Below, one piece after another: positions 5,868-5,920 of a stretch of 7,216 nucleotides of DNA. A program made the position numbers and the translations under genes. The notes under the pieces were generated by a model. It searched no databases, was not told the DNA's origin, and saw nothing but the letters and a program-made list of their open reading frames with translations. Origin of the DNA: a virus (lineage: Duplodnaviria; Heunggongvirae; Uroviricota; Caudoviricetes); the IMG/VR virus record IMGVR_UViG_2548876935_000005; one strand, 5' to 3'. The first letter of the stretch is position 1, and every line of letters starts with the position of its first letter.

Positions 5868-5896
5868 AAAGCCCCTTAGTAAGGGGCTTTTATATA
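5868..5896 (+). terminator. rho-independent terminator-like hairpin
   Basis: Perfect 10-bp stem AAAGCCCCTT (5868-5877), loop AGT, AAGGGGCTTT (5881-5890), followed by the T-rich tail TATATATT. Begins 12 nt after the lipoprotein stop. Confidence 0.6.
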
Positions 5897-5920
5897 TTAA
5901 TGTTCAACGGGGGGGATTAG

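Follow-up and report, generated by a model that had tools for sequence, protein, structure and literature searches.

A probable intrinsic terminator behind a moron-like lipoprotein gene on a PICI-like island of Escherichia coli

Morons are defined by a deviating G+C content together with a promoter and a terminator of their own, which allow expression from a repressed prophage (PMC3594210); the site ahead of the tail M and tape-measure genes is the one at which the first moron was described (PMC3594210). Elements that combine an integrase, AlpA, a primase, Icd, AntA/B, PerC or ProQ have been classed as PICI-type phage satellites (PMC13612085). The lipoprotein gene analysed here resembles the morons of lambdoid prophages (HK97 gene 15, lambda bor, lom) in its deviating G+C content, its upstream block, its terminator and its variable presence, and it has homologues in the tail operon beside the tape measure gene. 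The differences are that its carrier is a PICI-like satellite and not a phage, that a second small gene has joined it behind the terminator, and that the promoter is a putative one.

The hairpin that follows this gene has the features of the enterobacterial intrinsic terminators: a G+C-rich stem, a short loop, a U-tract right behind it and, ahead of the stem, an A-tract that lengthens it, placed a few nucleotides past the stop codon in the sense orientation; nothing essential differs. We consider it highly probable that the hairpin and its U-rich tail are the intrinsic (Rho-independent) terminator of a moron-type lipoprotein unit, located on a PICI-like island at tRNA-Thr, and that read-through of this terminator most likely feeds a membrane-protein gene.

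The window, by which we mean the whole stretch of 7,216 nucleotides, is part of an E. coli chromosomal island integrated beside tRNA-Thr and proA. The part of the island that precedes the window codes for an integrase, an HTH regulator, an AntA/AntB antirepressor and a YlcI/YnfO-family protein. Inside the window lie an Icd-like gene (177-380), a DUF4222 gene (1291-1581) and a D5-type primase gene (1578-3383), followed by an A+T-rich non-coding stretch (3384-3750, 27-33% G+C) with 11-nt GGTAGACAGTT iterons, partly in tandem at 11-nt spacing, which is probably the replication origin of the island. Genes for a ProQ/FinO-family protein (3753-4295) and a PerC-family regulator (4292-4579) precede a cargo segment of lower G+C (about 4600-6520), two small backbone genes (6523-6959) and an HTH_17 (AlpA-like) gene that starts at 7059. 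The last gene codes for 174-181 amino acids in relatives and is cut here at 7162: the last 55 nt (7162-7216) match the end of an IS66-family (ISEc8-like) element that is found in thousands of E. coli records.

The 380-residue lipoprotein, with a signal peptide and Cys18, is encoded on the + strand at 4714-5856, and the gene is ended by the hairpin (5868-5890, + strand). The 5' arm AAAGCCCCTT (5868-5877) and the 3' arm AAGGGGCTTT (5881-5890) form a perfect 10-bp stem, closed by the loop AGT (5878-5880) and followed by TATATATT. An earlier note on this DNA had described a perfect, GC-rich 10-bp stem with a T-rich tail; sequence, folding and terminator scan placed stem and tail exactly there, and the term GC-rich suits the core, in which 5871-5875 pairs with 5883-5887, since five of the ten pairs are G-C and five are A-T. 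The three outer pairs are A-U and join AAA (5868-5870) to the first three U of the tail. The distance of 12 nt between the lipoprotein stop codon, which ends at 5856, and the stem was borne out by the coordinates, and the 25 nt given for the way to the membrane-protein ATG (5921) holds approximately if the count begins past the T-rich tail; the stem itself ends 30 nt before the ATG.

With 10 bp and a loop of 3 nt, the stem-loop lies within the range of intrinsic terminators (5-14 bp, loop of 3-8 nt), and the U-rich tail TTTTATATATT (5888-5898, + strand, read from the sequence) stands directly 3' of the stem on the transcribed strand. The core, GCCCCUU/AAGGGGC, folds at -10.4 kcal/mol and the whole hairpin at -14.4 kcal/mol (z = -2.7), a value matched by 2 of 200 dinucleotide shuffles. 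In the terminator scan of the window this hairpin has the longest stem, 10 pairs. Under a strict rule that asks for at least 6 pairs, at least 4 of them G-C, and at least 5 T in the 8 nt past the last G-C pair, it is the sole match on the + strand of the 7.2-kb window.

Core hairpin and tail together gave a d'Aubenton-Carafa-type d-score of +12.4 (tail term T = 3.87), a terminator-like value of moderate predicted strength on a scale that is rough in absolute terms owing to the modern energy parameters used. A triloop and a tail broken past its fourth U make the predicted strength moderate and not high. A terminator for the minus strand was considered and rejected: there is no T-run, the tail on that strand reading TTTGCAC only, and no convergent gene.

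The DNA past the lipoprotein stop codon was read in 18 species-level genome loci, 8 loci reached through membrane-protein homologues and 50 loci on IMG/VR viral contigs. A hairpin with a T-run was found within 100 nt past the stop in 16 of 23 genome loci by the strict rule and in 19 by eye, the three additional loci missing the rule on account of a four-T tail or a T-run taken into a longer stem (L006). The rule has a background of 0.018 matches per 100 nt (40 matches in 221 kb), and 16 of these 40 fall at the position behind the lipoprotein gene. Four genome loci (L008, L012, L016, L018) showed no clear terminator. The viral contigs offered 21 distinct downstream contexts: 19 of them have a G+C hairpin with a T-run behind it no more than 100 nt past the stop, and the other two have a strong hairpin whose tail is poor.

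The stems themselves differ. GCCCC(T)/(A)GGGGC, CCACCCCC, CCCTGC, GACCCCG, CCTCGC, CCCGC, GAGCCCTGT and GGCCCCGTC were all found, so that at least seven stems of unrelated sequence are in use after the lipoprotein gene, and in all family hairpins the T-run is on the sense (+) side. The hairpin is identical in all Escherichia copies read (L001-L003, L030, L031 and 17 IMG/VR loci) and in L027/L028, and the G+C stem core is invariant in the GCCCC/GGGGC subset. Covariation among ten homologous hairpins reached a count that 59 of 500 shuffles also reached; the core never varies and the count is uninformative. Structure, position past the end of the gene and sense orientation are thus kept in homologues while the sequence is replaced, which argues for a functional terminator: its function is conserved in the lipoprotein family, its sequence is not. 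This family-wide pattern carries the terminator reading beyond what had first been noted from the window.

The lipoprotein family is widespread in the Enterobacterales, with identities from 99% down to about 41%, and its members were found in satellite islands, in the tail clusters of lambdoid prophages and in other islands. In Pseudocitrobacter, Xenorhabdus, Erwinia and Pantoea the homologue lies directly before the minor tail protein M or tape-measure gene. Homologues 41-61% identical were read in lambdoid prophage tail clusters (L014, L017, L019, L020 at about 4000-5200, and IMG/VR L064-L082); each of these carries a strong terminator, and the same family is thus cargo of both phages and satellites.

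The base composition of the cargo departs from that of its neighbours, with a G+C fraction of 0.38-0.41 across most of 4500-6600 (0.34-0.46 in 300-nt windows) as against 0.52-0.62 at 3750-4650. Its presence varies among related elements and across mobile contexts: the cargo occurs in only 113 of 5426 complete E. coli genomes, while parts of the backbone occur in thousands. The hairpin at 5868-5890 supplies the gene with its own terminator. A conserved upstream block, a lower G+C content and this hairpin together make a moron-like unit, and the gene looks like a moron in which a putative promoter, the gene and the terminator travel as one. Such cassette behaviour would place the hairpin at the 3' end of a lipoprotein unit that is transcribed autonomously.

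The cargo has been remodelled by IS3-family insertions in two E. coli strains, FDAARGOS_1302 (L029, 3958-4010) and MS8345 (L032, 6104-7317). In FDAARGOS_1302 an IS-adjacent deletion reaching to window position 5887 has taken the ProQ, PerC and lipoprotein genes together with the greater part of the hairpin, and has spared the T-tail and the membrane-protein gene. In MS8345 it is the 5' part of the lipoprotein gene that the IS has truncated.

As to the function of the two cargo proteins, neither the lipoprotein nor the membrane protein had a credible match in Pfam, PADLOC or PHROGs. The lipoprotein belongs to no Pfam, PADLOC or PHROG family, and its two NCBIfam matches lie far under the cut-offs and cover the N-terminal, signal-peptide region. 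Sequence searches of the PDB returned weak coiled-coil matches only, and an AlphaFold2 model (pLDDT 58) gave no Foldseek match at E <= 0.001. No protein match was found among the sequenced phages of INPHARED, and nothing was found in a literature search by protein accession.

A conserved block precedes the lipoprotein ATG and contains the putative cassette promoter (4674-4688, + strand). It was aligned over 17 loci; it lies at 4668-4713 in the window and in the 50 nt that lead up to the lipoprotein ATG in L004-L012, L014-L016 and L020-L024. These loci are of unrelated context; T14, A15, G17, A18, T19, T20, T23 and C24 are invariant, and the sequences further upstream are unrelated. The block measures about 45 nt with the consensus TTCC-TGnTAGGATTAATCCGAA...TTGGGATAGGGAT-ATG. 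In the window a TG-n-TAAGAT motif resembling an extended -10 element (4674-4682) overlaps the palindrome AGATTAATCT (4679-4688). The order of elements in the block is TG-n-TAgGAT, a 10-bp palindrome GGATTAATCC (AGATTAATCT in the window), a tandem GGGAT-A-GGGAT and the ATG.

TG-n-TAgGAT is invariant across the 17 loci, with n variable, and can be read as an extended -10 promoter; the two-hexamer promoter scan does not call the block. The block is probably the promoter and ribosome-binding region of the cassette; alternatively, a regulator might bind its palindrome. A hairpin in the lipoprotein leader was also considered and rejected: the UCC...GGGA pairing is weak (-2 to -6 kcal/mol) and its z is significant only in L010.

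The gene behind the hairpin (5921-6244, + strand) codes for 107 amino acids with long hydrophobic stretches, which were read as membrane-spanning by eye. The protein has 17 database relatives only and is 67-72% identical, at the same length of 107 aa, in Citrobacter, Enterobacter and Klebsiella; by this conservation the ORF is a real gene. A run of seven G (5909-5915, + strand) forms its Shine-Dalgarno region and varies in length by strain, with the variants G6, G7, G8, G9, GTGGGG and GTGGGGG (GTG4-5). The 3' edge of the run stays at a constant distance from the ATG, and an effect of the variation on translation is not obvious.

In every recovered locus the membrane-protein gene stands directly behind the lipoprotein gene or a remnant of it truncated or deleted by an IS (L031, L029), and it is behind the hairpin throughout, save where the IS3 deletion took most of the hairpin. 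Most lipoprotein loci are without it; judged by this distribution, it is an add-on behind the terminator in a subset of loci. The two genes are co-oriented and 64 nt apart; E. coli O104:H4 2011C-3493 is one of the strains that carry the locus, with the genes O3K_RS20260 and O3K_RS20255. Between the hairpin and the ATG the promoter scan found no sigma-70-like promoter, and the spacer, 30-40 nt long across loci, diverges fast. With no promoter between the genes and a spacer that is not conserved, the membrane-protein gene probably depends on read-through, at a lower level than the lipoprotein gene.

The d-score is +12 in the window, -13 to +25 at the loci with a membrane-protein gene and +21 to +46 before phage tail genes. 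A leakier signal where something useful lies downstream would fit this trend, which is confounded by phylogeny. The unequal expression of the two genes suggested in the earlier note is in this light plausible. Like intra-operon partial terminators and attenuators, the hairpin lies between co-oriented genes with no promoter between them; unlike attenuators, it comes with no alternative antiterminator structure, leader peptide or ligand-sensing element and has no Rfam match. The unequal expression would here be passive and not regulated. In a search of the whole window at E <= 1 Rfam returned no family, hence no riboswitch or attenuator model.

One candidate for an alternative fold was a long-range helix between AAUCC (5859-5863) and GGAUU (5914-5918), which would enclose the hairpin and mask the Shine-Dalgarno region. 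It was judged to be due to chance. An analogous UUUUG:CAAAA helix is present in L022, nothing comparable was seen in L021, L024 or L007, and the 76-nt region has a z of -1.2.

The gap past the membrane-protein gene (6245-6522) is 280 nt long and A+T-rich. RefSeq annotates in it a 66-aa hypothetical ORF on the minus strand (6307-6507), with no family match. No terminator is visible after the membrane-protein gene, so that read-through transcripts would run through 6523-6959 to a weak hairpin at 6966-6982.

A third gene stands 13-16 nt behind the lipoprotein and membrane-protein genes in Enterobacter bugandensis and Klebsiella pneumoniae and codes for a conserved 266-aa protein (L021 4798-7140; L024 4795-7137; L025; L026). 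This protein has a C-terminal hydrophobic segment and no Pfam match, and its gene is absent from the window. In Klebsiella the three genes adjoin a KAP-family NTPase gene. By their arrangement the three may form an envelope module.

The hairpin might instead be a full stop, the membrane-protein gene having its own weak promoter over the tail with TATATT (5893-5898) as the -10 element. TATATT and TATTAA do occur in the tail and the former leaves room for a weak promoter, whose start near 5905 would give a 15-nt leader including the G-run Shine-Dalgarno region. There is, however, no acceptable -35 element, as it would land inside the stem (AGCCCC), and the promoter scan reports none at the hairpin tail. 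The -10-like hexamer is also missing in L021, L024 and L007, in which the gene is kept (as an interrupted copy in L007), and the gene was never met except directly behind the lipoprotein gene or its IS-truncated remnant. A separate promoter therefore appears unlikely to us, and read-through remains the preferred source of membrane-protein transcripts.

FinO domains bind intrinsic terminators with at least four U, and the ligands of ProQ are enriched for an A-rich 5' flank (PMC7367173). The hairpin, with AAA at 5868-5870 and UUUU at 5888-5891, has the sequence features of such a ligand; its A flank shows about 90% conservation across the homologous hairpins, and a ProQ/FinO gene lies two genes upstream. 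It may accordingly be asked whether, in addition to terminating, the hairpin docks a FinO-domain RNA chaperone, be it the ProQ/FinO protein of the island (3753-4295) or the ProQ of the host, which would stabilise the 3' end of the lipoprotein mRNA or modulate read-through. In the A-rich 5' flank, the oligo-U tail and the nearby FinO-domain gene the locus is like the bound hairpins FinP SLII, malM-3' and cspE-3'. Unlike in those cases, binding here is hypothetical: the features are generic, being common to many terminators, and most cassette loci are without an adjacent ProQ/FinO gene. The hairpin is thus a candidate ligand only, and we regard docking as rather improbable.

A stronger form of this proposal, that the A-flanked, moderately strong terminator is a tuned valve which fixes a high ratio of lipoprotein to membrane protein and is bound by the ProQ/FinO protein of the satellite, we hold to be very doubtful. 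If it were true, the valve would serve a two-component envelope module (three-component in Klebsiella and Enterobacter), possibly one for phage exclusion, and binding by ProQ/FinO would link cargo expression to the life cycle of the satellite.

It had also been proposed that TGTTCAAC (5901-5908, + strand) is an operator half-site through which the regulator that recognises GTGTTCAACAC at 28-79 also acts; it would then control the membrane-protein gene or read-through. The candidates for this regulator are the YlcI/YnfO-family protein and the HTH protein encoded ahead of the window. The three operators at 28-38, 44-54 and 69-79, before the Icd-like gene, carry GTGTTCAACAC twice and GTGTTTAACAC once and bracket the promoter-like site TTGACG-17-TAAATT at 39-67; as operators they are convincing, and the site at 5900-5910 is not. 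TGTTCAAC does agree with GTGTTCAACAC at 8 of 11 positions, as had been reported, and only three exact copies of the 8-mer exist in the window, two of them operators, which leaves one extra copy against 0.3 expected. With up to three mismatches, however, the 11-mer has 15 sites in the window against 17 expected from shuffles, a match that does not rise above chance and bears out the caution, voiced with the proposal, that a single 8-mer could be fortuitous. The operator palindrome GTGTT-N-AACAC corresponds here to ATGTT-C-AACGG, in which 4 of 5 and 3 of 5 arm bases are kept and the two arms together are not, and no promoter overlaps 5901-5908.

Nor is the 8-mer conserved or seen to co-vary with the operator type of the sibling islands. 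L027/L028 read TGCTCAAT at this place, L029, L031 and four IMG/VR loci read TGTCCAAC, and the hairpin is identical in all of them. The sibling islands, with near-identical cargo and exchanged regulatory regions, have the operators TGTGATTC (L002), GTGTATATACAC (L029/L033) and, in the more divergent Citrobacter locus L022, TGAATACCA; the spacer 8-mer is nevertheless unchanged in L002 and one base off (TGTCCAAC) in L029. In L022 the minus strand of the spacer shares 8 of 9 positions with that island's own, different operator unit (TGAATATCA vs TGAATACCA), but four equally good background matches exist in 12 kb. A TATTCAA-like motif also precedes the membrane-protein gene in L021, where neither island genes nor such an operator occur within 6 kb, and in L007, where such an operator is missing within 4 kb. 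Around (G)T(A)TTCA the three operator types resemble one another.

Action of the island regulator at 5901-5908 accordingly finds no support: the match is at chance level, varies under a fixed hairpin and ignores the operator type, and we put very little weight on a functional half-operator. The resemblance of TGTTCAAC most likely reflects an ancestral spacer sequence plus chance.

At the operator site itself, the sibling islands have at least four operator sequences in the same place, together with differing alleles of the divergent YlcI/YnfO-family gene. The variants were read at L002 5594-5700, L022 371-575 and L033 1240-1340 (minus strand). This variation suggests exchangeable immunity-like modules.

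That the hairpin is a fortuitous inverted repeat, or a dispersed repeat (REP), with no role in transcription has next to no probability: the 76-nt region does fold no better than its shuffles (z = -1.2) and the window holds 10 terminator-like matches against a shuffle mean of 7.0 +/- 2.8, but the hairpin alone has a z of -2.7, a position kept family-wide through turnover of the sequence cannot be chance, and in 113 E. coli genomes the 121-nt region is present in no more than one or two copies each, without exception at this locus.

The reading we prefer is that of a terminator with read-through. Polymerase starting at the cassette promoter block (about 4674-4682), or arriving from the island backbone, would transcribe the lipoprotein gene, and most of it would dissociate once the GCCCCUU/AAGGGGC hairpin has folded in front of the UUUUAUAU tract. 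The lipoprotein mRNA would thereby receive a defined, hairpin-protected 3' end, and the downstream island genes would be shielded from the cargo promoter. The membrane-protein gene, which has no recognisable promoter, would most likely be expressed at a lower level by read-through of a terminator of moderate predicted strength. Termination itself, its efficiency and the feeding of the downstream gene are inferred here from sequence features.

On this reading a moron-type cargo gene ends in an intrinsic terminator of the ordinary sort, another instance of a well-known kind. The analysis removes a speculative regulatory link from the island repressor to the cargo and opens no new mechanism. Its value is mainly for annotation: a lipoprotein cargo gene that is widespread and uncharacterised receives a 3' boundary, and lower expression is predicted for the small membrane-protein gene past the hairpin. 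The lipoprotein gene moves as a cassette of putative promoter, gene and terminator among the prophages, satellites and islands of the Enterobacterales.
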